A stretch of DNA of 64,000 bases from Alphaproteobacteria bacterium (GTDB taxonomy: Bacteria > Pseudomonadota > Alphaproteobacteria > SP197), in assembly GCA_965228895.1 (NCBI GenBank), contig OZ245842.1:5280001-5344000 (forward strand), read 5' to 3'. Positions 1,127 to 29,475 of the stretch are shown one piece after another; position 1 is the stretch's first letter; each line of letters starts with the position of its first letter. The notes beneath the pieces are model-generated. The model was not told the origin of the DNA and did not search any database. It was given only the letters and a program-made list of their open reading frames with translations. Both the position numbers and the translations under genes were made by a program.

Positions 1127-1140
1127 GCCAGTCAAATGCC

Positions 1141-2613: not shown

Positions 2614-2646
2614 CAGCGGGCCGCAATGTATGCGGCCCGCTGTTTC
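2614..2646 (+). terminator. Stem-loop after tadG (probable terminator)
   Basis: CAGCGGGCCGCA-atgta-TGCGGCCCGCTG, 12-bp stem followed by TTT, between convergent genes. Confidence 0.55.
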
Positions 2647-3358: not shown

Positions 3359-3467
3359 TGCGTTCTTTCCCGGAGTTCTGCCGATCTGCGCTAGAGGCAG
3401 GAAATACCTGAATCCATTCAGAATTATACCGTTTTATTGCCGCGAGGTCACCGATTCGCTTTGATCG

Positions 3468-5036: not shown

Positions 5037-5137
5037 CTCTAGATGATGAACCGGTGAACCGGCACTTGGATTGCCTGTGTCCAGAAACTACGCAGAGCAG
5101 GTTGTAGAAGGACTAGCTCAGCTGTGACCGCTTTGCT

Positions 5138-6103: not shown

Positions 6104-6228
6104 GACTGGCCTAGGTGGTTACCCTATAGGCGTCGGCGCGAAAGCCGGTTGCCCATGTGGAACCACTCTGGTGCATGCGCGGGAGACAACTTGCCTCACG
6201 ATTCAAAGCGGCCTGGCCGTAAGTGGTC

Positions 6229-8909: not shown

Positions 8910-8921
8910 GTGGTGCTTTCC

Positions 8922-10121: not shown

Positions 10122-10151
10122 GGTCTGTCTCCTCTTGTTCTCAGTCGGTTG

Positions 10152-10838
10152 CTAGTCGTCTGACGCTACGTCGAGCGCGGCATCTCCGCCGCCCGTGGGC
10201 CAGCTCGCCTGCGGATTCGCGCCGGCCTGGTAAGCCTGAATAATGTTGACTGTGCGCTGGGCATCGCGGGTTGTGAACGTTCTGGATGCAACCAAGTCGC
10301 CGGGATTGGCGACCATGGCGGCTAGGTTGCGCTGGGACGAGCATCCAAAGTTGGACGTGTTTATGTTGTTGTAATCATGGGCCGATTCGGTCTGGAAGTA
10401 ACCGCAATCCGGCGCAATCGCGGTGTGCACCAAATACGAGACGGTCACCTGTCCGTTCATGGCGGCTTGGGGATCAACACCGACAAGCACTTCGCTCTTC
10501 GCCAAGCTATGCTCAAGCGCGCGGCGTTGAATCTCGCTTGCCAAGTTGGAGTGTTCCAGTGCGCTGCCAGGCATGACGATGAGGATCGGCTTCTGCCCGT
10601 TGGCCAGATAGTCGCTGACCATCATGTCGAGCTGCACAAGTTCGTCCAACGACAGTGTGCCGGTGTCAGTGCCAACAAAGTTGGCCTGAACCAGGTCGCT
10701 TTCAACGCGTATCGGATACTTGGCGCGATAGTCATAATCCGTGAGATTGATGTCTGAGTCTGAATACTGACACGCACCGAGCCCGGCGACGAAGACGGCC
10801 GTCACAACATGGCGCAGAAAGGGGCGAATCTTTGTCAT
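10152..10838 (-). CDS. cpaD: CpaD pilus assembly lipoprotein
   Basis: Lipobox LGAC, YPIRV, NFGCSSQRNLAAMVANPGDL; ATG at 10838. Confidence 0.9.
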   Translation of the reverse strand: MTKIRPFLRHVVTAVFVAGLGACQYSDSDINLTDYDYRAKYPIRVESDLVQANFVGTDTGTLSLDELVQLDMMVSDYLANGQKPILIVMPGSALEHSNLASEIQRRALEHSLAKSEVLVGVDPQAAMNGQVTVSYLVHTAIAPDCGYFQTESAHDYNNINTSNFGCSSQRNLAAMVANPGDLVASRTFTTRDAQRTVNIIQAYQAGANPQASWPTGGGDAALDVASDD

Positions 10839-10848
10839 CTGAATCCTT

Positions 10849-12249: not shown

Positions 12250-12274
12250 ACGTATCTAAGATCCCTCTAGGAGG

Positions 12275-13888
12275 TCATCCCCCTGAGCCGGAAAAGTTGA
12301 GGTCCTGCGGTATTGTCGAGCGATAAATCCGAACTTGTCCGCTGTCGCCGCCGATGGGGTCGTCGAGAATCAGGACACTGTCGTTGGTGTCAAAGCCTTT
12401 TGGTGGTGGCGGCAAAGTAAGGCCATACAGAAGGTCGACCATCGAACGACTCGCCTGAAAGTCAGACGTGTAACCTGCCAGCCTCGTATCGTCGCCGGGT
12501 TCGTCGCCGCGCAAGACCAGTGTCAGTGTACCTTCGGTCAGAGCTAGCGCGATGAGTTCTGCTTCTGCCGGCGTCACTTCAAGTGTTGCACTCGCGCTCT
12601 CTGGATCGATTGCTGGCACGCCGGTCATTGGGCTATGGACGCGCTCGATGTGCAGGACGCGGACGTTCTCCAACAGCATTTCGCTGAACCGGCGCGGGTC
12701 CTTGACCGGATCTTCGGACTCGTCCTCGAGTTCGAGGTTGTAGATCACATCGACACGCGCGCCGGGCATGATGAAACCCGAAACGCCGCGCGTCTCGTCG
12801 ACCGGAACGGTGATGGCGCGCATACCAGGCTCCAGTGCGGTCTCTATGTACCGATCCTCTGACGGCAGGAGCAATTCACCAGGTGTAATCGGTTGTCCGG
12901 CCTTGATATCCGTCATCAACAAACCGCTACGCAGGGCGTCGGGATCGCCATCGCCTTCAACAATCCAGTTAAACTGAATCTGATCTGACGGCATGCTGAC
13001 CCACTGCCAGTCCTGATTGTTAAGCACAGTGCCTTCGTTCAGATCTCTGCTGGCGACCAGAACGCGGCTGCCACCTGGCATGTTTCGGCCCAGGTAGCTG
13101 CTCACCATAAAGTCAGGGCTGAAGCTGCGCGGAATCTCGCTGATCTCGCCTTCTACCCGGCTGCGCAGGGACAAACTCAGCGAGCCCATCTGACTGGCGA
13201 CCGCGAGAGCCTGTGCCTGATTTGGGGTGACTTCCAACGTAACGGTCTCAACGACGTCCGCCAAAGTTTCGTTGGCGCCTTCTTCCCCGGTTCCCAGCGA
13301 AACGACCTGGTCGATGGCCAAGACACGGATGTCTTCAAGGGCTGTCTCACTGACCACACGATCAGCGGTGTCGCCGGTCGTCGGATCCTCGGTCGGAATG
13401 TCGAAAACCATCAGAACATCGACCCGGTCGCCGGGCAAAATGAAACCGGCCGCGCCGCTTCGTTCGTTCACGGCAATCGTGACGGCGCGCATCCCGGGCG
13501 TCAGCACGCCGGACAAGAACCCGGCGTCGCCACGATGAAACACCTTCGATGAAATGACGGGTTCGCCGCTGACCATGGCAACGCGGACCGCTGATCCAAC
13601 GAATTCATCGACCTCGGCGCGGCCGTCATCGCTGCCTTTGGTGATGTAATCGGCGCTAACAGCCTGCTCGGGCCAAGGTTGCCAGCGCAGATCGTCGTCG
13701 CGGACAATTCGCCCGATGGGAAGGCTCTGCGCGGCGATCAGGATGTCTACGGTGGTTTCCGAGACCATCTGAGGTTCGACGTTACGGGCCGCCTCTTCGG
13801 TCTCCGACAGAAAGCGGCTAACCAGAAATGCTACGGTGCCGGCGATCGCCAAGGCGACGACGATCAGGATGATCATGATGGGACGCAT
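12275..13888 (-). CDS. cpaB: CpaB/RcpC with two tandem SAF+RcpC modules
   Basis: PGMRAVTI..GFILPGDRVDV..TLEVTP occurs, then again as PGMRAITV..GFIMPGARVDV..TLEVTP; N-terminal membrane anchor. Confidence 0.92.
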   Translation of the reverse strand: MRPIMIILIVVALAIAGTVAFLVSRFLSETEEAARNVEPQMVSETTVDILIAAQSLPIGRIVRDDDLRWQPWPEQAVSADYITKGSDDGRAEVDEFVGSAVRVAMVSGEPVISSKVFHRGDAGFLSGVLTPGMRAVTIAVNERSGAAGFILPGDRVDVLMVFDIPTEDPTTGDTADRVVSETALEDIRVLAIDQVVSLGTGEEGANETLADVVETVTLEVTPNQAQALAVASQMGSLSLSLRSRVEGEISEIPRSFSPDFMVSSYLGRNMPGGSRVLVASRDLNEGTVLNNQDWQWVSMPSDQIQFNWIVEGDGDPDALRSGLLMTDIKAGQPITPGELLLPSEDRYIETALEPGMRAITVPVDETRGVSGFIMPGARVDVIYNLELEDESEDPVKDPRRFSEMLLENVRVLHIERVHSPMTGVPAIDPESASATLEVTPAEAELIALALTEGTLTLVLRGDEPGDDTRLAGYTSDFQASRSMVDLLYGLTLPPPPKGFDTNDSVLILDDPIGGDSGQVRIYRSTIPQDLNFSGSGG

Positions 13889-14117
13889 TGGGAGAGTCAG
13901 CCGTCCAATAGAATTGTAGGTCTAGTCGCGATTTTGCCCCTATCCATCTAGGTATCTCTCGACTGTCGTTAAGCTACGTCAACCAAACGAGGTACACCAT
14001 TGTGATAGCTGTGACCTCAGTCACTCAGACAGTATGCAACCATTTTTAGTAAACACCCGAAAGCAATATATTGTTACCCACAGCTAATGGCTATGAGTTT
14101 TCCACAAGATATTGGGT

Positions 14118-14669
14118 TCACCCAGGAAAAGCTGTTGAAAAGATCGGCAAGCGAAACCAGACCAACCAACCTGCGATTGCGATAGCGACACCATAAGGCA
14201 GGCCGGAGGATGGGTTGAAAAGTTTGGCAACCCAGCGGGTCTGAAACGTCTGATCGCGTGTCAGTCGGCGGGTCACGAGCAGGGCGGCGGCGATCAAGCC
14301 GCCGGCGAATGCCGTGTAAACCAAGAACGGGACCACCAGCGGCCATCCAACCCAAAGGCTAGCAGCCGCGAGCAGCTTGACATCGCCGCCGCCGATCATG
14401 CCGCGAAAGAAAAGCAGGCTGACGGCCAACAACACGACAAGTCCGACTAAACCGTGCCAGAGCATTGTCGCCAGGTCGGTGCCGGATATCAGAAGCGCGG
14501 GAATGGCGAGCAATGCTAGCCCCAAACAAAGGGTGTTTGGAATTAGGTAACGCAGCACATCGCCGGCGGCGGCCACGCTCAGCAGCGCCGGAAATGCGCA
14601 AGCGATGATGATTACCAAGAGTTGTGGTGCGTCGATTTCCAATGGGTCCTTGGTTGAGGTATGGCGCAC
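14118..14669 (-). CDS. cpaA: Prepilin peptidase CpaA/TadV (A24)
   Basis: GDVLRYLIPN, IGGGDVKLLAA, LPYGVAIA; multi-TM; start uncertain. Confidence 0.92.
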   Translation of the reverse strand: MRHTSTKDPLEIDAPQLLVIIIACAFPALLSVAAAGDVLRYLIPNTLCLGLALLAIPALLISGTDLATMLWHGLVGLVVLLAVSLLFFRGMIGGGDVKLLAAASLWVGWPLVVPFLVYTAFAGGLIAAALLVTRRLTRDQTFQTRWVAKLFNPSSGLPYGVAIAIAGWLVWFRLPIFSTAFPG

Positions 14670-15753: not shown

Positions 15754-16494
15754 ATGTTCTTCGCCGAACTCTTGACCTGGAGTTTAGCCGCTGCTGCCGG
15801 TGTTGCCTTCATGGGCGCCTTGATCAGCGGTTTCGCAGGCTTCGGTCTTAACCTGGTCATGACGCCGATACTGGCCGTCGTGATGAGTCCGGTCGAGGCG
15901 GTGCCGGTGGTGGCGATCCTCGGTCTGGTCAATGCCGCGCGCATGCTGGGTGGCACCTGGCGCTGGATGGACCGGCGCGAGGTCGTCATCATGGGCTTGG
16001 TGTCGGTGTTGACGGTGCCGATCGGCGCCTGGGTTCTCGTTAACGCCGACGCAGTCGTGATGCGCCGCGTCATCGCGGTGGTTGTGATTGTGTTCACGCT
16101 GATCTTGTTGGCCGGCTGGCGTTATCGGGGGGCCAGAACGTCAAAGACCCATGCCGCGATCGGCGCTCTTTCCGGCGTCTTGAACAGCGGTGTCGGTGTC
16201 GGCGGCCCTCCTGTCGTGCTCTACCAGCTCTCGCGCGATGGCGATCCGGCAGTCGGACGCGCCAACTTGGTCGGCTTCTTCACCATCCTGGCGATTGTCA
16301 CCATCACCATGTTCTTCATCAATGGCGCGATGGACAGCATCGCTGTGGGCCGCGCGGCGCTCCTGACCCCGCTCGTCCTTATCGGAACATGGTTTGGCAT
16401 GCGACATTTCAGCACGGCAAGCGCGCCGACCTACCGCCGGATCACGTTGGGTTTTTTGTTGGTTGTCTCGGCCGTGATCGTCGTTTTGGGCTAA
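15754..16494 (+). CDS. Sulfite exporter TauE/SafE family membrane protein
   Basis: ISGFAGFG, GALSGVLNSGVGVGGPP, ~8 TM segments; start moved to the ATG at 15754. Confidence 0.85.
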   Translation: MFFAELLTWSLAAAAGVAFMGALISGFAGFGLNLVMTPILAVVMSPVEAVPVVAILGLVNAARMLGGTWRWMDRREVVIMGLVSVLTVPIGAWVLVNADAVVMRRVIAVVVIVFTLILLAGWRYRGARTSKTHAAIGALSGVLNSGVGVGGPPVVLYQLSRDGDPAVGRANLVGFFTILAIVTITMFFINGAMDSIAVGRAALLTPLVLIGTWFGMRHFSTASAPTYRRITLGFLLVVSAVIVVLG

Positions 16495-16614: not shown

Positions 16615-16890
16615 CTAAGCGATACGTTTTACGGCAAACGCCAACACGAGCAGGCCAATCACCGCGCCGATGCCTGTGGCGACATAGACGTCAAGGCCAC
16701 CGATCCAGTTGATCAGGCCATAGACCTCCGCGCGCACGGAGCGCGCCTGGTGCTCGGCGGAAAAAAACATCTCGACGATCAGCACGCCAAGCGCGGTCGA
16801 GCCCAAAATCGTGACGACCGGCACCAGGACGGATTTCGTCGTCGCGAAAAAGCTGCCTATGACCTTGAAAACGAACGACATCTCAAACAA
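16615..16890 (-). CDS. Hypothetical 2-TM membrane protein
   Basis: Two hydrophobic segments; GGAG upstream; follows the 16909 gene by 18 bp. Confidence 0.5.
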   Translation of the reverse strand: MFEMSFVFKVIGSFFATTKSVLVPVVTILGSTALGVLIVEMFFSAEHQARSVRAEVYGLINWIGGLDVYVATGIGAVIGLLVLAFAVKRIA

Positions 16891-16908: not shown

Positions 16909-17178
16909 TTAGGAGAGCTTCCGCCAAACGTTAAGGTTCATCAGGTAGGAGTCAGACGACACGCCAACGCCGGCAAAGCGGTTTTCGACCATCTTGACGG
17001 TAGGCTCGACGATCAACCCGGCCTTGATCGCATCGTCCATGGCGTCTTGCAGCCGCTTGGCGGCCGTCAGGGCCGCATCGGCCAGCTCGCGATCCGAACG
17101 CCGACGGGTGCTGGAACCGTTAAAACTGACGACATCCGCGCTTGCGGGCATGATTTCGGCGGTCTGGCTCTGTGACAT
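16909..17178 (-). CDS. Hypothetical protein (89 aa)
   Basis: ATG at 17178 after AAAGGA; globular-looking sequence ..AMDDAIKAGLIVEP.. Confidence 0.55.
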   Translation of the reverse strand: MSQSQTAEIMPASADVVSFNGSSTRRRSDRELADAALTAAKRLQDAMDDAIKAGLIVEPTVKMVENRFAGVGVSSDSYLMNLNVWRKLS

Positions 17179-17528
17179 CCTGATCCTTTCAACTCGCGGC
17201 GCTTCATCAAACGCCGTTTCTAAGCTTGATGACCAATATGGCACGCCTCGATCATGCCCGCCGCTCATGCTGGAAGCCAGGCCGCGCAGGATGTCAGATG
17301 ATGAGATGTTCAAGATAAGGACTATGCAGATCGTCGCCTGAGAACTGCTCAAATTGTCGTCAGGCGCAGTCCGAGCGCTATAGAGAATGGCAGTGCTGCC
17401 TGCGTTGCCGCTTCAGGAAGACCTGGAAATCGATGCAAAACCGCGGTTTGCTGCCGCCGAAATGAGACAAACGGCGCGGTCGGTGGCGCCGTACATGCCC
17501 ATCCATAACCGATGTTTATGGATCCTGA

Positions 17529-18116
17529 TTATTGTTCCGTCGTGAGACCGTCGGCGAAGTGCCGTCCCAGTTCGCGCGCCTCGGCGATCATCGCCGCGGG
17601 CCGCTCGCCGCCATCGGTCGAGTGGTGCAGATAGGTGAACCTGCCGTCTTCGATGCCGCAATAGTTGAAAATGCCGGTGACGATCTGGGTCTCGATCGCC
17701 GTGTCGAAGCCTCGCTTGGCATAGGTCGGTTCGTCCGATGCCGATAGTCCGATGGCGAGAGCCCGTTTGTGGGGCAGGAAGGCCGAACTGTAGGCCCAAT
17801 CCTTGTTCCAGACCCGGTCGATCCAGCCCTTCAGCATGGCGGGCATCGACCACCACCAGATCGGAAACACCAGGATAACCGCCTCGTTGCGCTCCATGCG
17901 GGCCATTTCGTCCTGAACAGCGGCGGAATAGACCTTGTCCTCGCGCTCCCAGTCGGGTTCGTCGGGTTCCTTAAGGCCGGGATCGAAACCCTCGCCGTAG
18001 AGATCGGCGAGCTCCGCCTCATGGCCAGCCTCTTGCAGGCCTTCGACAACCGCATCGGCTATCGCACCGGTCAGCGAATCCCTGCGCGGATGACACAGAA
18101 CAACCAAAACCTTCAT
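17529..18116 (-). CDS. Flavodoxin-fold NAD(P)H:quinone oxidoreductase (Flavodoxin_2 / MdaB-KefF-like)
   Basis: VLVVLCHPRRDSLT, DLYGEGFDP, FPIWWWSMPAMLKGWIDRV. Confidence 0.9.
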   Translation of the reverse strand: MKVLVVLCHPRRDSLTGAIADAVVEGLQEAGHEAELADLYGEGFDPGLKEPDEPDWEREDKVYSAAVQDEMARMERNEAVILVFPIWWWSMPAMLKGWIDRVWNKDWAYSSAFLPHKRALAIGLSASDEPTYAKRGFDTAIETQIVTGIFNYCGIEDGRFTYLHHSTDGGERPAAMIAEARELGRHFADGLTTEQ

Positions 18117-18145
18117 GAAACGCCCCCAAGCTACACAGGTGGTCC

Positions 18146-21100
18146 TTATTCGGCTGCCGGCCTCAAGGCCATCTCGCGCAACGAGCGGTCGATCCAGAAG
18201 CGGGTCAGTTTTTCGTGCACGCCGTTTTGCGCGAGCCGCTGGGCCAAGCCAGGAAAGTCGACGCAGTCGAGCTGTTGATCCTGGTTGAAACAGGAGAAGA
18301 CGGGCGGCCGGCGTTCACCGGTCAGCGGATCGACATGGGGCTGCAGGCACTGGGCGCAGACCTCTTTCATCATGCATTGCATCGGACTGTTGATGCTGCC
18401 GATCGCGACGTGATTCTGCTTGAGCCAAGCCGAGAAGGCGCCGAAGCGCGCCGCCTTGACCGCCGCCATCATTTTGTCGGAGCCGATGGCGATGATGCGA
18501 TCGACCTCATTGAGGCTGATCGTGACGTCGCCCAGCTTGCCTTCCTGATAGGCGGTGACGGCATCGACGATGTTGCCGACAAAGCTGCGGTCCTGGGGCC
18601 GGCTTGGTTCGAAACCCGGTTGTTCGTCGCACGCCCAGACAATGGTGTCGGCGGCCTGCTCGATCTCCGCGACCTTGTAGCGGTCCTCGACCTTGCGGTA
18701 GCCGGCGACGTAGAGAACCTGATTCCCGGCTTCGCGCATGGCGCGACCGATGGAGAACAGGACGGCGTTGCCCAGGCCGCCGCCGAACAACAGCACCGTT
18801 TCGCCCGACGGGATCTCGGTCGGCGAACCGGTCGGACCCATGACGATCACCGGTTCGTCCTTGCGCAGGCTGGCCACCAGGTCGGACGATCCGCCCATCT
18901 CCAGAACGATCAGCGACAACAGGCCGCGCTCGGGATCGGTCCAGGCGCCCGTCATGGCGAGCGGTTCCATCGCCAACAACGTGTCGGCGGGCTTGCCGCT
19001 GAAACTCTCGTAGTTCTGCAGGCGGTAGAACTGGCCGGGCTTGAAGTTCACCGCCGCCTCGGGCGCATGAACGACAACCTCGACAATGGTTGGCGTCAAC
19101 CGCTCGACCCAGGCGACCGTTGCGACCAGACGCTTGGTGAGGCTCTCGAAGAAGGCCGACTCGCTTTTGCCAGCCGGGGGATCAAGGCGCTCGAGCATGC
19201 GTGTGATCACCGGATAGGCGCGCTTGGCGCCGCCCATCGCCTTGACCACATTGCCGGCGAAACTTGGATGCAGGTCGCCGTGGAAACTGACCGACCGGCC
19301 GTCCGGCGCGATGTGCATGAGGACGTCGGTCTCGGCCGGCTTGGCGACCTGTTCCGGGGCGACCGGCGCCGCGGATTCGTTGAAGGCCTGGAAGTACTTG
19401 CCGTCGAGCGACACGTGGCCGCTGTCTTCGCGCGCCAGAACCGTGTTCGGCTGGGTGCCGGCAGCGACCAATATCGCGCGCGCCGGCAACGTTACCTCGT
19501 TGCCGTCACTGTCGGCCGTGACCAGCGCGGCGGCGTGACCGTATTCATCGATGTCCACGCGTGTCGGCGACAGGCCGGGCGCAAAGCTGATGCCCTCCTC
19601 CAGCGCTAGCGCGACCTCTTCGTGGTTCAGCCGGTAGCTCGGTGAGTCCGTGATGTCGCGGCGATAGGCGATGGTGACGCCGCCCCAGGACTGCACGAGC
19701 TCGCGGATCCGGGCCTCGCGGCCTTCCGCAGCGGCGGCCTCGCGTTCGGCGCGGATGGCGCGGGCGTGAACCAGGAACTCATCGGCGATTCCGGCTTCTT
19801 CGGCGGTCCACGTCTCGCGCAGCTTGCCTTCCCGTCCGTCGGTGGCGAGCGCCTCGTAACGCGCCAGGAACTTTTCGACCTGCACGGGGTAATAGGCCAT
19901 CGACTCGGTCGCCGTATCGATCGCCGTCAGGCCACCGCCGATGACCACTGCCGGCAGGCGAAGCTGCAGGTTGGCAATCGACGGTTGACGGGCCGCGCCG
20001 GTCAGTTGCAGGGCCATCAGGAAGTCCGACGCCATGCGCACGCCGCGCGCCATCGCGTTCGGCATGTCGATATAGGTCGGCTTGCCGGCGCCGGCGGCGA
20101 GCGCGATGTGGTCGAACCCGGCGTCGAATGCGCTGTCGATGGTCAGCGTGCCGCCGAACCGGACGCCACCGAACATGCGGAAGCTATCGCGCCGCTCAAG
20201 CTGCAGGCGGATCAGCTTCAGGAAGTTTTTGTTCCAGCGCACGGTGATGCCGTATTCGGCGACGCCGCCGAAGCCCGCCATCACGCGGTCATCGAGATCT
20301 TCATAGAGTTGGTTGATGTCGCGGATAGGCCGGAACGCGTGACGGTTGCCCAAGAGGTCGATGCCGGAAATTTCCGGTTCCAACGGTTCGATCTTCAAGC
20401 CGTCGACACAGACCACCGTGTGGCCGTCGTTCATCAGGTGATGCGCCAGGTTGAAGCCGGCCGGCCCGACGCCGACCACCAGCACCTTGCGCCCGGTCTT
20501 TTCGCGCGGCACGGGCCGCTCGATGTTCAGCGGGTTCCAGCGCGACAACAGGCTGTAGATCTCGAAACCCCAGGACAGTTCCAGGATGTCCTTCAAGGTC
20601 CGGGTCTCGATCTGCGGAATGTCGACGGGTTCCTGCTTTTGATAGATGCAGGCCTTCATGCAGTCGTTGCAGATACGGTGGCCGGTCGCCGCGCATAGCG
20701 GGTTGTCGACCATGGCGACGGCGAGCGCCGCCAGCGACAGGCCGGAGGCTTTGAGAAGGTTCATCTCCGATACCTTCTCATCGAGCGGACAGCCGGCCAG
20801 CGTCACGCCGTGCGGGCTCTGCTTGAACGCGCCTTCCTTGTCGGTCAGCCCCGTCGAGCAGCTGTCCTTGCCCTGGTTATGGCACCAGATGCAGTAGTTG
20901 GCGTGATCGAGCGCGGCTTCCAGATCCATGCCGTGATCGGTCAGGGCAAACCCTTCGCGCCGGCGCAGGTCGTGCTCGGGCAGTCGCAGCATGGTGACGC
21001 CGCCGATCTCGATCGTCTCGACCGGCACCAGGTGATCGGGGTTCACCTTTTCCGGCAGATGGAACAGCGGGCTCTTGCGGTAGCGGTGCCGGCCTTCCTC

Positions 21101-21619
21101 CGACAACGCGGCCCAGGCGGCGAACCGGGCGGCGGCGGCAAGCGCCTCGGCGTTGACTTCCTCGTCGTCCAGCCATGCCATCACAGCGCGGGCGAAGGAA
21201 AGCTCGGTCAGCGTCTCGCCGATCAGCGCCTCGACCGCACGGCGCAGCGCGGCGCCGTCGGCCGCCGCCAGCTCGTCGGGCTTGAAGGCCTTGGCGGCGC
21301 GCCGGCGCACGAAGATGCGCTTGCATTCGTAGATCGGATTGAGCCGGTCGCGTTCGCCACGCAGGTTCGCCAGTTCGTCACCGACGCCGAACAGCTCGGT
21401 GACGAAGTCTTCGACCGTTGAACCCAGGTCGGTCAGCAGGTCGGAATGGGTCTTGGCGTCAAGACCGGCGGGTTCGCTGCGCGCCGCCATCAGGCGGTTG
21501 AACAGCTCGGCGTCTGTCTCCTTCAAGCGCTCGACAAAGTCGCGGTCGAGACGCACCAACCCATCACGATCGTAGAGGTCGTCGAAGGAAAACCCGAATG
21601 CCAGGGAAAGCTCGGTCAT
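18146..21619 (-). CDS. Large flavo-Fe-S oxidoreductase: GltD/NfnB-like domain fused to PyrK/NfnA-like domain (~1157 aa)
   Basis: N-part: CIWC..C..GCP and RICNDCMKAC Fe-S motifs, GVGPAG, IGGGLTAID. C-part: KPGQFYRL, MGPTG, GGGLGNA, SPMQCMMKEVCAQC..C [2Fe-2S] motif. ATG at 21619 after AAGGTG. Confidence 0.85.
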   Translation of the reverse strand: MTELSLAFGFSFDDLYDRDGLVRLDRDFVERLKETDAELFNRLMAARSEPAGLDAKTHSDLLTDLGSTVEDFVTELFGVGDELANLRGERDRLNPIYECKRIFVRRRAAKAFKPDELAAADGAALRRAVEALIGETLTELSFARAVMAWLDDEEVNAEALAAAARFAAWAALSEEGRHRYRKSPLFHLPEKVNPDHLVPVETIEIGGVTMLRLPEHDLRRREGFALTDHGMDLEAALDHANYCIWCHNQGKDSCSTGLTDKEGAFKQSPHGVTLAGCPLDEKVSEMNLLKASGLSLAALAVAMVDNPLCAATGHRICNDCMKACIYQKQEPVDIPQIETRTLKDILELSWGFEIYSLLSRWNPLNIERPVPREKTGRKVLVVGVGPAGFNLAHHLMNDGHTVVCVDGLKIEPLEPEISGIDLLGNRHAFRPIRDINQLYEDLDDRVMAGFGGVAEYGITVRWNKNFLKLIRLQLERRDSFRMFGGVRFGGTLTIDSAFDAGFDHIALAAGAGKPTYIDMPNAMARGVRMASDFLMALQLTGAARQPSIANLQLRLPAVVIGGGLTAIDTATESMAYYPVQVEKFLARYEALATDGREGKLRETWTAEEAGIADEFLVHARAIRAEREAAAAEGREARIRELVQSWGGVTIAYRRDITDSPSYRLNHEEVALALEEGISFAPGLSPTRVDIDEYGHAAALVTADSDGNEVTLPARAILVAAGTQPNTVLAREDSGHVSLDGKYFQAFNESAAPVAPEQVAKPAETDVLMHIAPDGRSVSFHGDLHPSFAGNVVKAMGGAKRAYPVITRMLERLDPPAGKSESAFFESLTKRLVATVAWVERLTPTIVEVVVHAPEAAVNFKPGQFYRLQNYESFSGKPADTLLAMEPLAMTGAWTDPERGLLSLIVLEMGGSSDLVASLRKDEPVIVMGPTGSPTEIPSGETVLLFGGGLGNAVLFSIGRAMREAGNQVLYVAGYRKVEDRYKVAEIEQAADTIVWACDEQPGFEPSRPQDRSFVGNIVDAVTAYQEGKLGDVTISLNEVDRIIAIGSDKMMAAVKAARFGAFSAWLKQNHVAIGSINSPMQCMMKEVCAQCLQPHVDPLTGERRPPVFSCFNQDQQLDCVDFPGLAQRLAQNGVHEKLTRFWIDRSLREMALRPAAE

Positions 21620-21684
21620 GGCCACCTTGGGGAACGGAACAATGGCGTCAGGCGTCGAAGGCGCCGGCGCGACGGCCTTATATA

Positions 21685-22458
21685 TCATCCAGCTTGCCGG
21701 GCAACGTCTGGAATGGGTGTATCGGCGGCGACCACCTTCGGTGATTCCATAAGGTGGATGCCGCACTCGGCCTTGTCGTTGCCGGCCCAGCGGCCGTCGC
21801 GGATATCGTCATCGCCGGTCACCGGACGGGTGCACGGCGCGCAGCCGATCGAGACATAGTGGCGTTCCAGCAAGGGGTGCTTGGGGAGCTTCTTGTCGGC
21901 GATGAACTTGAAGACATCGCGCCGGTCCCAATCGGCCAGCGGGTTGATCTTGACCCAGCCATCGGAGGCTTCGACCGGCGGCAGGCTTTGCCGGCCGCCG
22001 CCATGGAAACGCTTTCGTCCGGTAACCCAGGCGGCATAGGGGGTCAGCGCCTGAACCATCGGCGTCACCTTGCGCAGGAAACAGCAGGCGTCGGGATTGT
22101 CGCGCCACAGGGTGCCGCCGGGATCGGTCGCCGCGATATCGACGATGTCGGGACCGGCGGAGCGTACGCCGGTCAGTCCCAGGTGAGCGATCACGTGGTC
22201 GCGGTAGGCAAGAGTCTCCGGGAACAGCTGGCCGGTATCCAGGAAGATCACCGGGATGGCCGGGTCGATCTCGGCGGCGAGCGCCAGGAGCGCGACCGCC
22301 TCGGCGCCAAAGGACGAGGCAACGGCGATCTCGCCGGCGAACGGGCCCTCCACCGCGGCTTGCAACAGGTCGCGCCCCGTCAGATGACCGTGGTCCAGGG
22401 CGAACTCGGCGGCCCGCCGTTTCGCGCGGTCGCGGCGTTGCTGGCGCCAGTCGCTCAT
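21685..22458 (-). CDS. cysH: APS/PAPS reductase CysH (Fe-S, APS-reductase type motifs)
   Basis: SSFG, FLDTG, CC.LRK, KINPL, SIGCAPCT, GRW, ECGIH; start overlaps the upstream stop (ATGA). Confidence 0.93.
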   Translation of the reverse strand: MSDWRQQRRDRAKRRAAEFALDHGHLTGRDLLQAAVEGPFAGEIAVASSFGAEAVALLALAAEIDPAIPVIFLDTGQLFPETLAYRDHVIAHLGLTGVRSAGPDIVDIAATDPGGTLWRDNPDACCFLRKVTPMVQALTPYAAWVTGRKRFHGGGRQSLPPVEASDGWVKINPLADWDRRDVFKFIADKKLPKHPLLERHYVSIGCAPCTRPVTGDDDIRDGRWAGNDKAECGIHLMESPKVVAADTPIPDVARQAG

Positions 22459-23015
22459 CCCAGCCATCCCTGTTCGTCGATGTACCGGTCGGTCCGGCGT
22501 TTGACCGCCGCCATGTCGGCGCCGTCGGCGCGCCAGTCGTTCCTGGCCTCAGCCAGTTCGTTGATCCGTCCGGCCCATTCCGGCCCGAACAGCCGCTCGA
22601 CATAACGGCGCAACGAGCCCGCAAGGCCGGGCGCACGGCCGGCGGTCGAGATGGTCAGTGTCAAATCACCGCGCCGAACCAGGGCGGGCAGGTGAAAGTC
22701 GCAATATGGTTTGCGGTCCTCGACGTTGACCAGGACCTTTAGTGCGCGGCAGGCGTCGGCTATCGGCCCCGCAACGGTGTCGCTTAGACCGGCGACAAAC
22801 ACCACGTCGGCCTCCGCGAGGTCGCGGGTCTCGGGCAGGCGCGCCACCAACCGGTCGCTGGCCACCGCCTCCAGGGCGTCGCCCGTCCGGTCGGAATAGA
22901 CCGTGATATGGCGGGCGCCGGCGTTCTCGCAGAACTTGAGCTTGCGCGCGGCGGCCGCGCCACGGCCGACCACCGCGATCTTCAGGCGTGTCACGTCGAG
23001 CTGAACGGGCAACAT
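22455..23015 (-). CDS. Precorrin-2 dehydrogenase / sirohydrochlorin ferrochelatase (CysG N-terminal, SirC/Met8-like)
   Basis: LPVQL, VVGRGAAAARKL, LVNVED...CDFHLPALVRRGDLTLTISTAGRAPGLA; no methyltransferase domain. Confidence 0.88.
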   Translation of the reverse strand: MLPVQLDVTRLKIAVVGRGAAAARKLKFCENAGARHITVYSDRTGDALEAVASDRLVARLPETRDLAEADVVFVAGLSDTVAGPIADACRALKVLVNVEDRKPYCDFHLPALVRRGDLTLTISTAGRAPGLAGSLRRYVERLFGPEWAGRINELAEARNDWRADGADMAAVKRRTDRYIDEQGWLG

Positions 23016-23199
23016 ATCAAGCCACTCCCGCAAGACGGCGCGCCAATGCCAGGTGGCAGGCAAACCGGCGTTGACGCAGGGACAAGCCAGATTTGGGTGT
23101 CTGGGGGCAGGTCAGGGACATCACCATGGTCGGTCTCCGCAGATCCGTGTCGTTCGTGGCCGGATCTTCTGCTTGCGGGTCGCCGACGGTGGCGCGGGC

Positions 23200-23232
23200 A
23201 AAAAAATGCCGCCCTCTCAAAGTGATGGGCGG
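23200..23232 (-). terminator. Riboswitch expression-platform terminator
   Basis: Minus strand CCGCCCATCA-CTT-TGAGAGGGCGG followed by CA and T7. Confidence 0.8.
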
Positions 23233-23237
23233 TCTGC

Positions 23238-23293
23238 CCACCGCTTTAGCCGTATTTCTAGAGCGCCCGCAAGCTGATGATCAAATCGGCGCT
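23238..23293 (-). ncRNA. SAM-II (SAM_alpha-like) riboswitch aptamer
   Basis: Minus strand AGCGCC-GATTTGA-TCATCAGC-TTGC-G-GGCGCT-CTAGAAATACG-GCTAAA-GCGGTGG: P1 AGCGCC/GGCGCT, conserved GAUUU, UUGC and GCUAAA, pseudoknot pairing possible; upstream of sulfur-assimilation genes. Confidence 0.85.
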
Positions 23294-23421
23294 ATGCACA
23301 CGAATATGCGTGCCTGGCGGCGTGGCCGCAAACGAGAAATGCTAGGGCGATTGATAAGTATTTCTAAGGATAAGCTCTGGGCAGGGTCAACGTCCATGGG
23401 GCGCCAGGCCAACCGTATGCG

Positions 23422-23483: not shown

Positions 23484-24917
23484 CTACTGCCAGCCGCTGA
23501 CCGACTTCACCTCGAGAAAGTCCTCAAGGCCCCAGACGCCGCCTTCGCGACCGTTACCGGATTGGCGGTAGCCGCCGAACGGTGAACCGGCTCCGCCCGA
23601 ATGGCCGTTGATCTCCACCATGCCGCTGCGCAGCACACGGGCGGTGCGGCGCGCCTTGTCCAGATCCTGGGTCTGAACATAGTTGGTCAGACCATAGGCC
23701 GTGTCGTTGGCCAATTCGATGGCCTCATCCTCGCTGTCGAACGGCGTGATCGCGAGCACCGGGCCAAAGATCTCCTCGCGCCAGATCGTCATGTCCTGGT
23801 CGACATCGGCGAAAACGGTCGGGCGGGCGAACCAGCCTCGGTTCAACCCGTCAGGTCGGCCGGTGCCGCCGGCCACCAGCCGCGCGCCTTCGTCGATGCC
23901 TTTTTGAATCAGACCCTGGATCTTGTCCCATTGCACTTCCGAGACAACGGGGCCTATCTGGCTTCCATCGATGTCGGCGGCGGCGACCTCGGTCTGCTGG
24001 GCGACTGACTGCGCCGTCTCGACCGCCTTGTCGTAGAGCGACCGCTCCACCAGCATGCGCGTCGGTGCGTTGCAGGATTGGCCGGAGTTGTTGAAGCAAT
24101 GGCGCACGCCACGCGTCACGGCCTTGTCGTCCGCATCGGCAAAGATGATGTTCGCGCCTTTGCCGCCCAGTTCGAGCGTCACGCGCTTGATCGTGTCGGC
24201 GGCGTTCTTGGTGATGGCGCGGCCGGCGCGGGTGGACCCGGTGAAGCTGACCATGTCGACATCGGGATGGACGGAAAGCTGGCTGCCCACGCCCGGGCCA
24301 TCGCCATTGACCAGATTGAAGACACCTGCGGGTATGTCGGCGGCATCGACCATCTCGGCAAACAGGTAGGACGAGAGCGGAGCCACCTCGGACGGCTTCA
24401 AAACGACCGTGCAACCCGCCGCGAGCGCCGGCGCGACCTTGAGAACGACCTGGTTCATCGGCCAGTTCCATGGCGTGATCAGCGCACAGACGCCGATCGG
24501 TTCCATGAGGATGCGATCGCCGGGCGCGTGATCGCCCAGCATGCGGTCGAATTGAAAGCTCTTAAGCGTCTCGATCGCGTCTTTCAAATGACCGATGCCG
24601 GCGCCAACCTGGGCGGTGCGCGCCAAGGCGATGGGCGCTCCCATTTCCTGGCTGATCGCCTGGGCCATGTCCTCCGCACGCGCCTTGTAGGCCGCGAGCA
24701 ACCGCTCCAGCGCGGCCACCCGCTCTTCCTTGGGACATTGCGCCCATGCGGGAAGGGCGGCCTTTGCCGCGGCGACAGCCATGTTCGTATCGGCTTCACC
24801 GCCTAGCGAGATCGTCGCGAACGGTTCCTCGGTCGAGGGATTCAACACGGTCAGGTCCTGACCCTCGATTGGCGCAACCCAGGCGCCATTGATGTAAAAC
24901 TCGCGTGCGTCCTGCAT
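23484..24917 (-). CDS. NAD(P)-dependent aldehyde dehydrogenase
   Basis: ITPWNWP, LKPSE, SFTGST, LELGGK, NSGQSC, EEIFGPV, PFGGYRQSGNGREGG; ATG 24917 after GGAGAG. Confidence 0.95.
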   Translation of the reverse strand: MQDAREFYINGAWVAPIEGQDLTVLNPSTEEPFATISLGGEADTNMAVAAAKAALPAWAQCPKEERVAALERLLAAYKARAEDMAQAISQEMGAPIALARTAQVGAGIGHLKDAIETLKSFQFDRMLGDHAPGDRILMEPIGVCALITPWNWPMNQVVLKVAPALAAGCTVVLKPSEVAPLSSYLFAEMVDAADIPAGVFNLVNGDGPGVGSQLSVHPDVDMVSFTGSTRAGRAITKNAADTIKRVTLELGGKGANIIFADADDKAVTRGVRHCFNNSGQSCNAPTRMLVERSLYDKAVETAQSVAQQTEVAAADIDGSQIGPVVSEVQWDKIQGLIQKGIDEGARLVAGGTGRPDGLNRGWFARPTVFADVDQDMTIWREEIFGPVLAITPFDSEDEAIELANDTAYGLTNYVQTQDLDKARRTARVLRSGMVEINGHSGGAGSPFGGYRQSGNGREGGVWGLEDFLEVKSVSGWQ

Positions 24918-25203
24918 GTCTCTCTCCATTGGCGTGCGGATCAACGGGTGATCCGAGCGTTGGTTGGTCAGAAAGCGGCAGGGCTCGACAGCCCCGCGAA
25001 ACGTCGGGAGAACGATGTGATATGTGGTGCGAATAACTATCAGTTGCAATACTCGAAGTTGGCTTTAGGCCGCCAATCCGCTGGTTTAGTCGATCAATCG
25101 AGATCGCGAGGTCTGGCATCCTCAGTGCGGTTTCCGTCGGTTGCGGGGGGACGGTCGGGCGCAGTAAACTCGGCGCCGCGACCCCCGGACGATAAACTGT
25201 TGG

Positions 25204-27567
25204 ATGACCACCATGGCCTTGGCTGAATCCCAGACAAGCCCGGTCCGGCCGCGACTTTTGTTGCCAGGACTGGCCCGTTGGAAGCCGGGACAAGAACGGT
25301 ATCAGGTCACCGGGGGCGGTTCGGTAACCGTGCCGGTGTTCGCCGGCGACCAGATCCATGTCATGGATCCCGAGGGCCGTCAGGCCTGCGAAATCGTCGC
25401 CGTGACCGCAGACGGCCGTGAGGCACCGGGCCTGTTGGGCGCCGAAGACGGCGGACCCGGGCAGGGTTTGCGACAGATGGTGAAGGCTGGCGGCGACAAC
25501 GCAGCCGGTTTGCTGGCGGCGCTCGACAAGCGTGGCCTCGACATTGGCTTTGAGCGCGCCATTCACTGTTTCGGTCCGGAGACGCCGGCCTTCGAGACGG
25601 CGTCGTTTGCGGTCGACGGCGACGGCATCGTCATCGTGGCGGCGCCGGGCGAGGACATGGCGGTCGATACGCACAATCCGCCGACAGCGCTTGAGCTGAC
25701 GATCGAGCGGGCGGATCCCAAGCAGGCGGCCGAAGCCAACCTGCCCGACCCGCTTGCCGATGTGCGTCACGAGCACCGGATCGTTGCCGGCTCCGCCCAC
25801 GCCTTTGAGGTGCGCGAAGGCGAGTACATCCAGATCCTGGATGTCGAGGGGCGCGAGTGTTCGGACTTTCAGGCTTTCGCGACGCGCCAGCTCGACAAGG
25901 GCATCGAGCGCGACATCGACCCGACGGCGACGCGCACGCTGATGGGCGCGATCTATCCCGGCCCCGGCCTCTTCTCAAAATTCTACGACACCGATCTCGA
26001 GCCGAAGCTGGAGCTGATCCAGGACATGGTCGGGCGCCACGACACGTTCGGCTTTGCCTGTACGGCCAAGTACTACGACGATGTCGGCTATCCCGGCCAC
26101 GTCAACTGCACGGAGAACTTCAACAACGCCCTGGCGCCCTATGGCATCGCGCCGCGCGGCGGCTGGCAGGCGATCAACTTCTTCTACAACACCAATATCG
26201 ACGACAACCATCAGCTCTATCTGGACGATCCATGGTCCAGACCGGGCGACCATGTCATCGTGCGCGCGCTGGAAGACATGGTCTGTGTCGCCTCGGCCTG
26301 TCCCGATGACATTTCCGCCGCCAACGGCTGGAACCCGACCGACATCCTGGCCCGGATCTACGCTCCCGAAAACGTTTTCAAGAAAGCGATTGCCTTCCGC
26401 ATGACGCCCGACGCCGAACCTGAAATGACCAAGGAAACCGCATTCCACGCGCGGACCTCCGAACTCACCCGCAACGTCACCGAATACAACGGCTATTGGT
26501 TGCCGACCCACTACACCAACCACGGCAAGGTCGATGAGTACTGGGCTTGCCGCGAAGGCGTGGTGGCGCTTGACCTCAGTCCCTTGCGCAAGTTCGAGGT
26601 CACCGGCCCCGATGCCGAGGAGCTGATGCAGCGCACCCTGACGCGCAATGTCAGGAAGCTGGCCGAAGGCGAGGTCGTTTATTCGGCCATGTGTTACGAG
26701 CACGGCGGCATGATCGACGACGGCACGCTGTTCCGCATGTCGGACACGAATTTCCGTTGGGTCGGCGGCAGCGACTACGGTGGCAAATGGTTGCGCGAGA
26801 AGGCGGCCGAATGGGGTCTGCGCGCCTGGGTCAAGTCGTCGACCGATCAGCTCCACAACTTCGCGGTCCAGGGACCAAAGAGCCGCGATCTCTTGCGCGA
26901 CGTCATCTGGACACCGCCGGCGCAGCCGTCAATGGACGAGGTCGCGTGGTTCCGTTTCACCATCGGGCGTATCGGTGGTCACAACGGTGTGCCCGTCGTC
27001 GTCTCGCGCACCGGCTATACCGGTGAGCTCGGCTATGAGGTCTGGTGCCATCCCAAACACGGGACAGAGGTCTGGGATGCCGTGTGGCAGGCGGGTGAAC
27101 CCCATGGCTTGACGCCGCTCGGCCTCGACGCGCTCGACATGTTGCGCATCGAAGCCGGCCTTATTTTTGCCGGCTACGAGTTCGACGATCAGACCGATCC
27201 GTTCGAGGCGGGGATTGGCTTTACGGTCGCGCTGAAACACGGCGAGGACTTCATCGGCCGCGACGCGCTCGTTCGGCGCAAGGAGAACCCGCAGAAGAAG
27301 CTGGTCGGCCTGGAGGTCGAAGGCGGCGAGGCTGCCGGCCATGGCGACTGCGTCCACATCGGGCGCGCGCAGATCGGCGTCGTCACGTCCGGCATGAAGT
27401 CGCCAATTTTGAAGAAGAACATCGCGCTTGCCCGGTTGGATGTCGCGCACGCCGAGCCCGGCACCGAGGTCGAAATCGGCAAGCTCGACGGCCATCAAAA
27501 GCGCATTCCAGCGACCGTTCAGCCGTTCCCATTCTATGATCCAAAAAAGGAGCGGCCGCGGTCATAA
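25204..27567 (+). CDS. tdm: Trimethylamine N-oxide demethylase (DUF1989 + GcvT)
   Basis: 787 aa; DUF1989 part with HDTFGFAC, GHVNC, SACPDD, NGWNPTD; GcvT part with DLSPLRKFEV, DDGTLFR, SRTGYTGELGYE, LRIEAG. Confidence 0.85.
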   Translation: MTTMALAESQTSPVRPRLLLPGLARWKPGQERYQVTGGGSVTVPVFAGDQIHVMDPEGRQACEIVAVTADGREAPGLLGAEDGGPGQGLRQMVKAGGDNAAGLLAALDKRGLDIGFERAIHCFGPETPAFETASFAVDGDGIVIVAAPGEDMAVDTHNPPTALELTIERADPKQAAEANLPDPLADVRHEHRIVAGSAHAFEVREGEYIQILDVEGRECSDFQAFATRQLDKGIERDIDPTATRTLMGAIYPGPGLFSKFYDTDLEPKLELIQDMVGRHDTFGFACTAKYYDDVGYPGHVNCTENFNNALAPYGIAPRGGWQAINFFYNTNIDDNHQLYLDDPWSRPGDHVIVRALEDMVCVASACPDDISAANGWNPTDILARIYAPENVFKKAIAFRMTPDAEPEMTKETAFHARTSELTRNVTEYNGYWLPTHYTNHGKVDEYWACREGVVALDLSPLRKFEVTGPDAEELMQRTLTRNVRKLAEGEVVYSAMCYEHGGMIDDGTLFRMSDTNFRWVGGSDYGGKWLREKAAEWGLRAWVKSSTDQLHNFAVQGPKSRDLLRDVIWTPPAQPSMDEVAWFRFTIGRIGGHNGVPVVVSRTGYTGELGYEVWCHPKHGTEVWDAVWQAGEPHGLTPLGLDALDMLRIEAGLIFAGYEFDDQTDPFEAGIGFTVALKHGEDFIGRDALVRRKENPQKKLVGLEVEGGEAAGHGDCVHIGRAQIGVVTSGMKSPILKKNIALARLDVAHAEPGTEVEIGKLDGHQKRIPATVQPFPFYDPKKERPRS

Positions 27568-27959: not shown

Positions 27960-29363
27960 TTACTCGGCCGCTTCGGCGCCCGCTTCGCTCATCAGGCGTT
28001 CGGCCAGCGCCTTCTTCTGACCGGCGTCCATCTTCTTGACTTCGTTGTCGATGGCGCGCTCGTTGATCGCCTGGTTCCAGTAGTCCAGCGAGTCGAAGCC
28101 CAGCAACGCGTACTTACCGACAAACTGACGCAAGACTTCGTTGGTCGGGCCCATGACCCAGCCGGCCTTGCCGTCACGCAGCAGCCGCTCCATGCCGAGC
28201 GAGGCCTTGTAGGCCGAACCGCCGCAGGCATGCAGCATCTTGTCGGAGACCTCGTGCACGTTCTTGGCCGCCTGGAACTTGATCTGCCACATCCAAGGCA
28301 GTAGCTCGGAGCGCGGCAGGGCGGCAATGTCCTTGTGGATCGACCAATCACAGTTGTTGGTCACATCGTCCAGCGCGCGGGCCATGCTGTAGACGAACAT
28401 GCGGCTGGCATTGGTGCTGATGATGGCTTCGCCGACATAGTCCTGAATGGTCGGGTAGTCGCACACGCGCAGGCCGACGTCGACGTGTTTCTTGCGGGTC
28501 GTGTGCTGCTTGGCCAGATCGATCATCGCCATGGAAATGCCGTTCCAGGCGCATGACGAATTGATCAGGAAGAACGGATCGACGGACTCATCGTTAGAAG
28601 CCGCGCCGTCACCGCGGGGTCCGACCATGCGGTCGGCCGGAATCTCCAGGTTGTCGACCAGAAGCGTGCCCGACTGGTTGCCGCGCAGGCCCATGCCGTC
28701 CCACTTCGCCGGCTCGGCCTTCACCTCGTCGGCCATGCACAGGAAGACCGAGAGATCCGAATAGTCGCCGTTAAAGTCCGGGCTGGTCGTCTGCATGATG
28801 TACCAGTCGGCGAAGCCGCCGGAGGTGCACCACGAGGCTTTCTTCAAGACCTTCCAGCCGTTCTCCGTCTTCTCGGCGTTCGACGAGACGGGATACCAGA
28901 AATGCGAGCCGGTCTCCGGATCGGAATACGACAGCGTGCCGATCATGACGTCCTTGTCGACGCGGCTTAAGATGTCGCGCAGCGTATCGTTGTCGTGATG
29001 GCGCAGTGCCGCCGCGGCGACGGCGCCGTAGTGCATGGTCAAGCACATGGCCGTCGAAGGACAGCCGTAACGCGCGACGGCCTCACAGACCATGGCCATG
29101 GTGACGTGGTTCTGACCCATGCCGCCCAGTTCCTTCGGCACCGTCAGGCCGAGCACACCGAGCGAGGCAAGCGCCTCGAAGTTCTTGCGCGGGAAAACAA
29201 AACCCTGATCGGATTCGACGGCGTTTTCGCGCAAGGTCGACGCGCTGAGCGCGATGATTTTTTCCTGAAGTTCCTTCTGTTCGTCGTCGAACAGAAACTG
29301 CGGATCGAATTCATAGCCGAGGCCCTGGAATTCCTCCGAGCCCCACATTTTGGTATCGCTCAT
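27960..29363 (-). CDS. Acyl-CoA dehydrogenase-fold flavoprotein (atypical)
   Basis: LGLTVPKELGG, CPSTAMCLTMH, SYSDPETGSH, WDGMGLRGNQS, GGSAY..ERLLRD; ATG 29363. Confidence 0.85.
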   Translation of the reverse strand: MSDTKMWGSEEFQGLGYEFDPQFLFDDEQKELQEKIIALSASTLRENAVESDQGFVFPRKNFEALASLGVLGLTVPKELGGMGQNHVTMAMVCEAVARYGCPSTAMCLTMHYGAVAAAALRHHDNDTLRDILSRVDKDVMIGTLSYSDPETGSHFWYPVSSNAEKTENGWKVLKKASWCTSGGFADWYIMQTTSPDFNGDYSDLSVFLCMADEVKAEPAKWDGMGLRGNQSGTLLVDNLEIPADRMVGPRGDGAASNDESVDPFFLINSSCAWNGISMAMIDLAKQHTTRKKHVDVGLRVCDYPTIQDYVGEAIISTNASRMFVYSMARALDDVTNNCDWSIHKDIAALPRSELLPWMWQIKFQAAKNVHEVSDKMLHACGGSAYKASLGMERLLRDGKAGWVMGPTNEVLRQFVGKYALLGFDSLDYWNQAINERAIDNEVKKMDAGQKKALAERLMSEAGAEAAE

Positions 29364-29475
29364 TTGTCCCACCCCGATGTTCGTGGCAACCACCCTTTTG
29401 GCCTCGCTTGACGAGGCCTTACTCCCTGCATAGCACCGCATCGGCGAAGCGTGCAACTTGCGCCGCCGCGGTCAA

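Follow-up and report, generated by a model that had tools for sequence, protein, structure and literature searches.

The 64,000-nucleotide stretch of alphaproteobacterial DNA analyzed here (G000:C1:5280001-5344000, hereafter the window) comes from a 5.53-Mb genome held on a single contig, and its minus strand carries, at 18146-21619, a gene for a 1157-amino-acid (aa) enzyme in which NfnB-type and NfnA-type modules are fused. We refer to this gene as big and to its product as Big. It is the third of four co-directional genes, behind a sirC-like gene and cysH and ahead of a gene termed flav, and the operon is headed by a leader that resembles an S-adenosylmethionine (SAM) riboswitch of the SAM-II type. 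Our findings suggested that Big is an NADPH-driven electron-input module for several acceptors which, in this lineage, was brought under SAM control to feed a CysJ-less sulfite reductase, an account to which we give an even chance of being correct.

The operon was arranged on one strand with the short junctions described in the initial annotation. The sirC-like gene (22455-23015, minus strand) encodes a 186-aa precorrin-2 dehydrogenase of the siroheme synthase N-terminal type (PF13241, 3.9e-18; TIGR01470 cysG_Nterm, 78.5 bits, cut-off 62.3). It is followed by cysH (21685-22467, minus strand), encoding a (phospho)adenylyl-sulfate reductase of 260 aa (PF01507, 2.1e-40; NF002537, 251.7 bits, cut-off 154), or of 257 aa if translation starts at the ATGA-coupled ATG at position 22458; read from the sequence, the ATGA overlap joins the TGA of sirC with this second ATG of cysH. 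A gap of 65 nt, which carries an AAGGTGG ribosome site, separates cysH from the ATG of big at 21619, and 29 nt separate big from flav (17529-18116, minus strand), whose 195-aa product is a flavodoxin-fold NAD(P)H oxidoreductase of the quinone type (PF02525, 1e-42; NF007280, 198.6 bits, cut-off 162). The earlier statement that no obvious internal terminator is present also held, as a scan of 7.2 kb returned 5 weak sites against 5.4 expected from shuffles, none of them in the 65-nt or 29-nt gap. Such an arrangement would be consistent with co-transcription of the four genes.

Big comprises four parts. A probable RP005_N domain occupies residues ~1-235 (its extent is given as ~235-270 aa), indicated by a protein-atlas feature search in which the best cluster scored 0.93 and 82% of its members carried PF27156 RP005_N; a Pfam set that lacks PF27156 gave no match there. 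Next come a domain for two [4Fe-4S] clusters (residues ~240-340, Pfam Fer4_20), an NfnB/GltD-like FAD/NADPH module (residues ~375-755, Pyr_redox_2) interrupted by an insertion of ~70 aa at 573-645, and an NfnA/PyrK-like FAD/NAD/[2Fe-2S] module (residues ~835-1115). In the Protein Data Bank (PDB), sequence relatives were the NfnB-type chains 5jca_L, 5vj7_A and 4ylf_B over residues ~450-755, and the NfnA/PyrK-type chains 4ylf_A and 5jca_S over residues 837-1009 (E ~1e-16 to 1e-17); a narrower bounding of the matches gave residues 451-620 for the NfnB type and 837-1003 for the NfnA/PyrK type. Fusion of the two module types, as claimed earlier, was therefore borne out by both Pfam and PDB sequence matches; the earlier description had left out the N-terminal domain, for which a profile search against PDB sequences found no relative (best E 1.1).

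The cofactor motifs of Big were strongly conserved in an alignment of 25 diverse homologues from alpha-, beta- and other proteobacteria (A2), whose mean column identity was 69%. Residues C243, C246, C254, C277, C317, C320, C324 and E338 were invariant in all 25, as were the GxGPAG FAD motif (G383-G388), the GGG motif (G561-G563) and C1082, C1088, C1091 and C1110, which form a PyrK-type [2Fe-2S] motif. In the YRR motif, Y652 and R653 were invariant and R654 nearly so. In NfnB of Thermotoga maritima, two clusters are bound by seven cysteines and one glutamate, and YRR is the motif for the NADPH phosphate, according to the parts of the published account consulted (PMC7596348). Because the ligand and YRR patterns match, the NfnB-like half of Big very probably holds an NADPH site and two [4Fe-4S] clusters.

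Compared with NfnAB, Big appears to keep the NfnB-type module with its seven cysteines and glutamate, FAD motif and YRR, a correspondence drawn from the pattern of residues, together with an NfnA/PyrK-type FAD/NAD/[2Fe-2S] module, and its best PDB matches were Nfn chains. The similarity to Nfn was confined to parts of the protein (E 1e-15 to 1e-18). Unlike Nfn enzymes, which consist of two subunits or of an A-then-B fusion, Big is a single chain with B before A, and it adds the N-terminal domain of ~235-270 aa and the insertion of ~70 aa in the NADPH module.

Homology places Big clearly in the catalogued and functionally uncharacterized RP005/PRK06567 family. The NF005128 (PRK06567) profile, which extends over the N-terminal domain, matched residues 6-978 and a C-terminal stretch of Big with model positions 3-930 and a C-terminal stretch (E 2.7e-223, 744 bits). 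This score lies below the curated equivalog cut-off of 1072, a value reached in none of 201 genomes drawn evenly from the class, each at least 90% complete (the class sample). The initial annotation had proposed an undescribed system, and this part of its claim fell away: the family is already catalogued as NF005128/PRK06567 and Pfam RP005_N. It may also correspond to "Pattern C" of Liang et al. (2019), uncharacterized fused Nfn homologues of Actinobacteria and Alpha- and Gammaproteobacteria, which in the sections consulted show the same domain order, with the NfnA part C-terminal (PMC6405883). A literature search for the RP005/PRK06567 family found no functional study. We estimated the family at ~4700 stretches in a species-genome collection. 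It occurs mostly in aerobic proteobacteria, and big was single-copy in all 24 other genomes searched of the window's own family.

The leader of the operon contains a putative SAM-II (SAM_alpha) aptamer at 23225-23302 on the minus strand, found in a permissive scan as a full-length match to RF00521 (model 1-79, 31.5 bits, E 3.6e-4). In two other genera of the same family, sub-threshold matches lay in the equivalent place, ~210-240 nt ahead of sirC (L055, 31.2 bits; L125, 32.9 bits; L and G labels denote the loci and genomes of our homologue survey, G000 being the window's own genome). RF00521 gave no match ahead of the two tested sirC-big operons without cysH (L110, L111), nor at the distant cys-linked loci L068, L079, L039 and L059. 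In a three-way alignment, the aptamer core was invariant and the flanks diverged. A terminator-like hairpin, CCGCCC...GGGCGG followed by seven T (23200-23232, minus strand; identified from sequence and minimum-free-energy fold), is the likely expression platform; its loop of 12 nt caused the consensus terminator scan to miss it. The hairpin was kept in L055 and L125, with one stem position changed to a G-U pair in L125, and in a helix upstream that overlaps it, GGGC/GCCC became GGAC/GTCC in L125, a compensatory change. We read this leader as a real SAM-II variant that would respond to SAM by termination. Between the terminator and sirC lies a 36-codon open reading frame (ORF) (23017-23127, minus strand) that has its own GGAGA ribosome site and ends 1 nt ahead of the sirC ATG. 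Its C-terminal peptide, ...LALARR(I/L)AG(W/V)x, was kept in the window, L055 and L125 while its middle varied in length; the ORF may encode a small protein or serve as a leader peptide.

The recurrence of big in sulfur operons was evidence for its role. At least six different builds of sulfate-assimilation operon, counted below, ended with big on the strand of the other genes. The order sirC-cysH-big was found in the window's genus (g1) and in g2, in G014 and in L068, and L055 was like the window; sirC-big was found in G005, G012 and G020; cysH-DUF2849-cysI-DUF934-big in G004, G006 and G011; and cysH-cysD-cysNC-big in L039, G076, G222, G092 and G181. Longer orders were cysI-sirC-cysH-big (L079), cysI-sirC-cysH-cysD-x-x-cysNC-big (L059) and cysI-sirC-cysH-cysD-cysNC-..-big (G149), and cysI-sirC-big was found in G140 and G164. 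In L134 (G176), cysD and cysNC lay upstream of big on the same strand; as no cysH or NIR_SIR protein was found in that genome, it apparently activates sulfate without reducing it.

The counts behind this pattern are not independent, having been taken from samples of related genomes. In the window's family (24 genomes, G000 and 23 others, with G008 left out), big stood directly behind sulfur or siroheme genes in 13 and in none of the other 11; G022 and G024 in this set had at most 1.5 kb of upstream DNA. In the class sample (E<=1e-60 for big; E<=1e-25 for NIR_SIR, matches to which take in nitrite reductases as well), big closed a cys or siroheme operon in at least 9 of the 26 carriers having cysH or NIR_SIR, namely G000, G005, G076, G222, G092, G181, G149, G140 and G164. 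A FastTree phylogeny was built from 107 homologues, and upstream DNA reached 3 kb or more for 93 of its rows; 21 of these were cys-linked, a label that required at least 10 changes. Since this tree was made quickly and has some long branches, that number gives a rough lower-bound picture and not a dated history. By comparison, chance adjacency of two genes within 8 kb of a 2-6-Mb genome would be of the order of 1%. By the kind of neighborhood survey that the initial annotation had proposed, the cys linkage of big is real, recurrent and more than a local accident. It is plausible that big was recruited into sulfate-assimilation transcription units in several lineages to do the job of CysJ.

The absence of CysJ pointed in the same direction. 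In the window's genome, TIGR01931, whose cut-off is 668 bits, matched at best with 87 bits, and this to a protein other than Big; none of the three PF00175 proteins was a plain Fpr, and no reductase gene stood beside DUF2849-cysI-DUF934. The sole partial CysJ-like match was a ~395-aa protein (G000:C1:358422-359249, minus strand), a fusion of a 2x[4Fe-4S] ferredoxin to a ferredoxin-NADP reductase (FNR), which we take to resemble BoxA. A CysJ-like gene at E<=1e-60 was found in none of the nine cys-linked genomes of the class sample. The CysI of G000 is of the NirA-like, DUF2849-associated type, and those of L059 and L079 are canonical (NF010029, 645 and 684 bits, cut-off 457). Among 14 sampled genomes with a canonical CysI, a CysJ-like gene adjoined in five, of which one carried big; six of the nine without an adjacent CysJ-like gene carried it. 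Among these genomes, big was thus found more often when canonical CysI lacked a CysJ-like neighbor, a weak trend in small and related samples. The anti-correlation with cysJ predicted in the initial annotation had the right direction and little statistical weight, the numbers being small. As to Fpr, ferredoxin reductases fall into several unrelated types, and at least one CysJ-less and big-less genome with cysH and cysI, G037, had no PF00175 protein at all.

Other observations bore on which step of the pathway would be served. Because operons of the types sirC-big and cysI-sirC-big lack cysH, and because G005 has no cysH while keeping DUF2849-cysI elsewhere in its genome, siroheme sulfite reductase is indicated over the reduction of adenylyl sulfate (APS), and Big is more plausibly linked to sulfite reductase and siroheme than to APS reduction. 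The earlier proposal that Big supplies electrons to both reactions in place of Fpr or CysJ was accordingly narrowed: the lack of CysJ and plain Fpr in G000 and the recurrent cys linkage agreed with it, and APS reduction became the less likely target. Random barcode transposon-site sequencing led other authors to propose DUF2849 as an alternative electron source and DUF934 as an accessory; in the parts seen, no cofactor is named for the small DUF2849 protein (bioRxiv 10.1101/072470).

Several findings weighed against this account. The cysI gene is not in the window operon: DUF2849-cysI-DUF934 ends ~1.1 kb ahead of the window's first base, 19 kb from the operon, and cysD lies at 2.31 Mb, so cysI and cysDN are outside the window as had been noted. 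In the leader, no Rfam match reached the gathering threshold, the RF00521 score being below the gathering score of 36; the predicted riboswitch agreed with SAM-II in its aptamer core, its place in three genomes and its terminator, and fell short in score. In a set of 79 distant loci, with homologues at 53-75% identity, upstream flank of 3 kb or more was available for 60, and only 5 of these showed cys linkage (L055, L068, L079, L059 and L039). Sulfite reduction, moreover, needs no electrons of very low potential.

Co-occurrence across the class sample also ran counter to a dedicated sulfur role. Big was present in 54 of the 201 genomes (one of them, G057, unpublished) and cysH in 79, with both in 18; NIR_SIR matches occurred in 102, of which 25 had big. 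The gene cysH was no commoner with big (18 of 54 carriers) than without it (61 of 147 non-carriers), and 28 of the 54 carriers, mostly genomes of 1-2.5 Mb, lacked both cysH and NIR_SIR. Big was present in 14 of 78 DUF2849-type genomes and missing from 64, and a Caulobacter control with DUF2849, cysI and cysH had no NF005128 match. In the portion consulted, Driscoll et al. (2013) reported PRK06567 in nearly every Rickettsiales genome (PMC3641634). The initial annotation had treated the enzyme as a specialized part of the sulfur pathway, a view that these carriers without sulfate-assimilation genes, and the many CysJ-less sulfite-reductase genomes without big, contradicted. Big is neither necessary for CysJ-less sulfite reduction generally nor restricted to that process.

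Neighbors of other kinds weighed against a sulfur role as well. The commonest was heme A synthase (COX15/CtaA), upstream of big in 24 of 126 loci; a MarR regulator adjoined big in seven distant loci, and flav followed it in the window's family. In 20 class-sample carriers, which were for the most part small genomes lacking cysH and NIR_SIR matches, big had no conserved neighbor. Neighbor clusters built de novo from the 79 distant loci were mostly antisense shadow ORFs in GC-rich DNA; a "165-aa ORF 22 nt upstream" and the two largest clusters without a Pfam match overlapped ctaA on the other strand or in another frame, and these candidates were rejected.

A mechanism in which Big serves more than one client would accommodate both sets of observations. 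In it, Big would be a soluble, single-chain iron-sulfur flavoprotein of the NfnB+NfnA type that oxidizes NADPH at its NfnB-like flavin, and electrons would pass through the two [4Fe-4S] clusters to acceptor enzymes, directly or via ferredoxin, with possible coupling of the PyrK-like FAD/[2Fe-2S] arm to NAD(H). The family would serve several clients, and the lineage of the window would have put the gene behind sirC and cysH under the SAM-II-type riboswitch. Being under such a riboswitch, Big would be made when sulfur amino acids run low. The main client here would be the CysJ-less siroheme sulfite reductase encoded by DUF2849-CysI-DUF934, with Big in the position that CysJ holds in Escherichia coli. 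A more sweeping version is possible, and we advance it only tentatively: that CysJ-less proteobacteria feed NADPH electrons into assimilatory sulfite reductase through RP005/PRK06567 enzymes, which would fill a long-standing gap and serve heme A synthase as well. They would then be single-chain Nfn derivatives passing NADPH electrons to Fe-S and heme acceptors in aerobes and in Rickettsiales-like reduced genomes, possibly by bifurcation with NAD+ as co-acceptor, controlled here by a SAM-II riboswitch of variant type, accompanied by a terminator and a conserved leader peptide.

The alternative that survived best was that Big is a true Nfn transhydrogenase balancing NADPH, NADH and ferredoxin, placed among cys genes by their demand for NADPH and passing no electrons to sulfite reductase. 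The retained cofactor motifs of both Nfn subunits, including YRR and the second dinucleotide module, fit this reading, as do the many genomes that have big without cys genes and the cysH-cysD-cysNC-big operons, which carry no sulfite reductase gene. General NADPH demand, however, would not account for linkage to sirC only, or to cysI-sirC without cysH, which points at the siroheme enzyme, and the distribution of big among canonical-CysI genomes with and without an adjacent CysJ-like gene also speaks against it. Known Nfn enzymes have neither the extra N-terminal domain nor the 70-aa insertion, and aerobes would presumably hold little reduced ferredoxin to drive NADPH formation. We consider a transhydrogenase of this kind unlikely.

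A second alternative took the heme A synthase pairing as primary. Heme A synthase would be the family's real client, or else Fe-S or cofactor enzymes and other oxygenases that depend on ferredoxin, and cys genes would have been inserted into an old slot between ctaA and big, making the linkage meaningless. The gene ctaA was divergent from big in 23 of the 24 loci (L007, L034-L037, L040, L042-L047, L063, L067, L068, L126, L136, L137, L150, L151 and L154-L156) and on the same strand in L148, and in six loci (L068, L150, L151, L154, L155 and L156) cys genes lay exactly between the two. Small genomes without cys genes keep the big family, and Cox15 of yeast requires the ferredoxin Yah1 and its reductase Arh1, as stated in the part of the source consulted (PMC7140478). 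This reading is nevertheless quite unlikely, as cys gene sets of different composition stood ahead of big in distinct regions of the tree and invariably shared its strand, and linkage occurred with no ctaA nearby in the window, L039, L059, L079 and the g3 and g5 genomes; in G000, ctaA lies 90 kb from big. The operon of the window also carries a predicted riboswitch specific for sulfur metabolism. Roles in heme A and in sulfur metabolism are not exclusive, and from the ctaA pairing together with the ferredoxin and reductase needs of Cox15, a shared electron-input role for both kinds of acceptor would be coherent.

A third alternative, that Big and Flav form a pair for redox stress or quinone detoxification in which the sulfur context is lineage-specific and secondary, was very unlikely: flav followed big in 17 of 20 same-family loci, including G009, which lost cysH and NIR_SIR, and the MarR neighbors and a Redoxin gene after big in L068 would suit it, yet flav linkage did not extend beyond the window's family, to which both of the two linked loci among 68 distant ones belonged, Flavodoxin_2 enzymes require no partner, using NAD(P)H on their own, and the recurrent cys and ctaA contexts would be left unexplained. 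Flav was also considered as the flavodoxin-like half of a split CysJ, and this was rejected on account of its absence from every cys-linked operon outside the window's family. In two species of the same genus (L083 in G001, L084 in G002), flav lay ~1 kb downstream of big and not 29 nt, with an insertion between.

The preferred role of Big, an NADPH-oxidizing electron input for CysI, would make it a functional analogue of CysJ, and it sits in cysI and cysH operons of genomes where no CysJ-like gene was found. Unlike Big, CysJ combines an FMN-flavodoxin with an FNR-type FAD domain and has no Fe-S cluster; the two are unrelated in sequence, cofactors and domains, and TIGR01931 gave no match to Big. 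Reductase genes also serve as electron sources in other sulfite-reduction clusters, such as Fpr2/CysX in the cys cluster of Corynebacterium glutamicum and AsrB, which is PyrK-like, of anaerobic sulfite reductase; both differ from Big in fold or subunit organization. CysX is mentioned in passing in the portion seen of bioRxiv 10.1101/072470. A precedent from dissimilatory metabolism is the NfnB-like DsrL, which the sections consulted describe as partnering dissimilatory sulfite reductase and linking it to NAD(P)H (PMC7596348). By that description, DsrL resembles Big in tying an NfnB/GltD-type module to a siroheme sulfite reductase and in its two-cluster N-terminal domain, and DsrL-2 keeps YRR. 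In contrast, DsrL ends in a ferredoxin domain, where Big ends in a PyrK-like module, and it works with DsrAB in energy metabolism and not with assimilatory CysI.

The surroundings of the operon were also surveyed. The exporter reported nearby in the initial annotation was found: a TauE/SafE-family membrane protein (15754-16494, plus strand; ORF listed from 15322; PF01925, 3.4e-23, with the Pfam match from residue 159) is convergent with the operon, and the same neighbor occurred in L055, L085, L086 and L122. Two ORFs in the ~1-kb interval between tauE and flav (16909-17352 and 16615-16890, both minus strand) had no Pfam or PHROGs match; the second resembles a membrane peptide. On the other side, a 787-aa protein (25204-27567, plus strand) fuses DUF1989 (PF09347) to an aminomethyltransferase/GcvT domain, and its gene adjoins those of an aldehyde dehydrogenase (23484-25049, minus strand) and an acyl-CoA dehydrogenase-like protein (27960-29456, minus strand).

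A Tad/Flp pilus cluster (TadE, TadG, CpaB-F, secretin and prepilin peptidase) occupies positions 1-14669 of the window and stands between DUF2849-cysI-DUF934 (G000:C1:5276436-5278900) and the tauE/flav-big-cysH-sirC block. Its G+C content is 0.56-0.59, against ~0.65 across the operon. Since the two corresponding cys blocks are ~4.5 kb apart in G076 and G222, the pilus cluster may have been inserted into an older sulfur region.

Many proteobacteria perform CysI-type sulfite reduction without CysJ, and the donor of the six electrons is unsettled. Our findings put Big forward as a candidate, open to test, for the enzyme that supplies sulfite reductase with electrons in bacteria without CysJ. For a conserved family, this lead to function rests on the recurrent cys operons, the trend among genomes with a CysJ-less canonical CysI and the SAM-type riboswitch. 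If Nfn chemistry is retained, Big would offer a case of bifurcation-type enzymes at work in aerobes. The pairing with heme A synthase further suggests a wider role, one that could explain the retention of big in reduced genomes.

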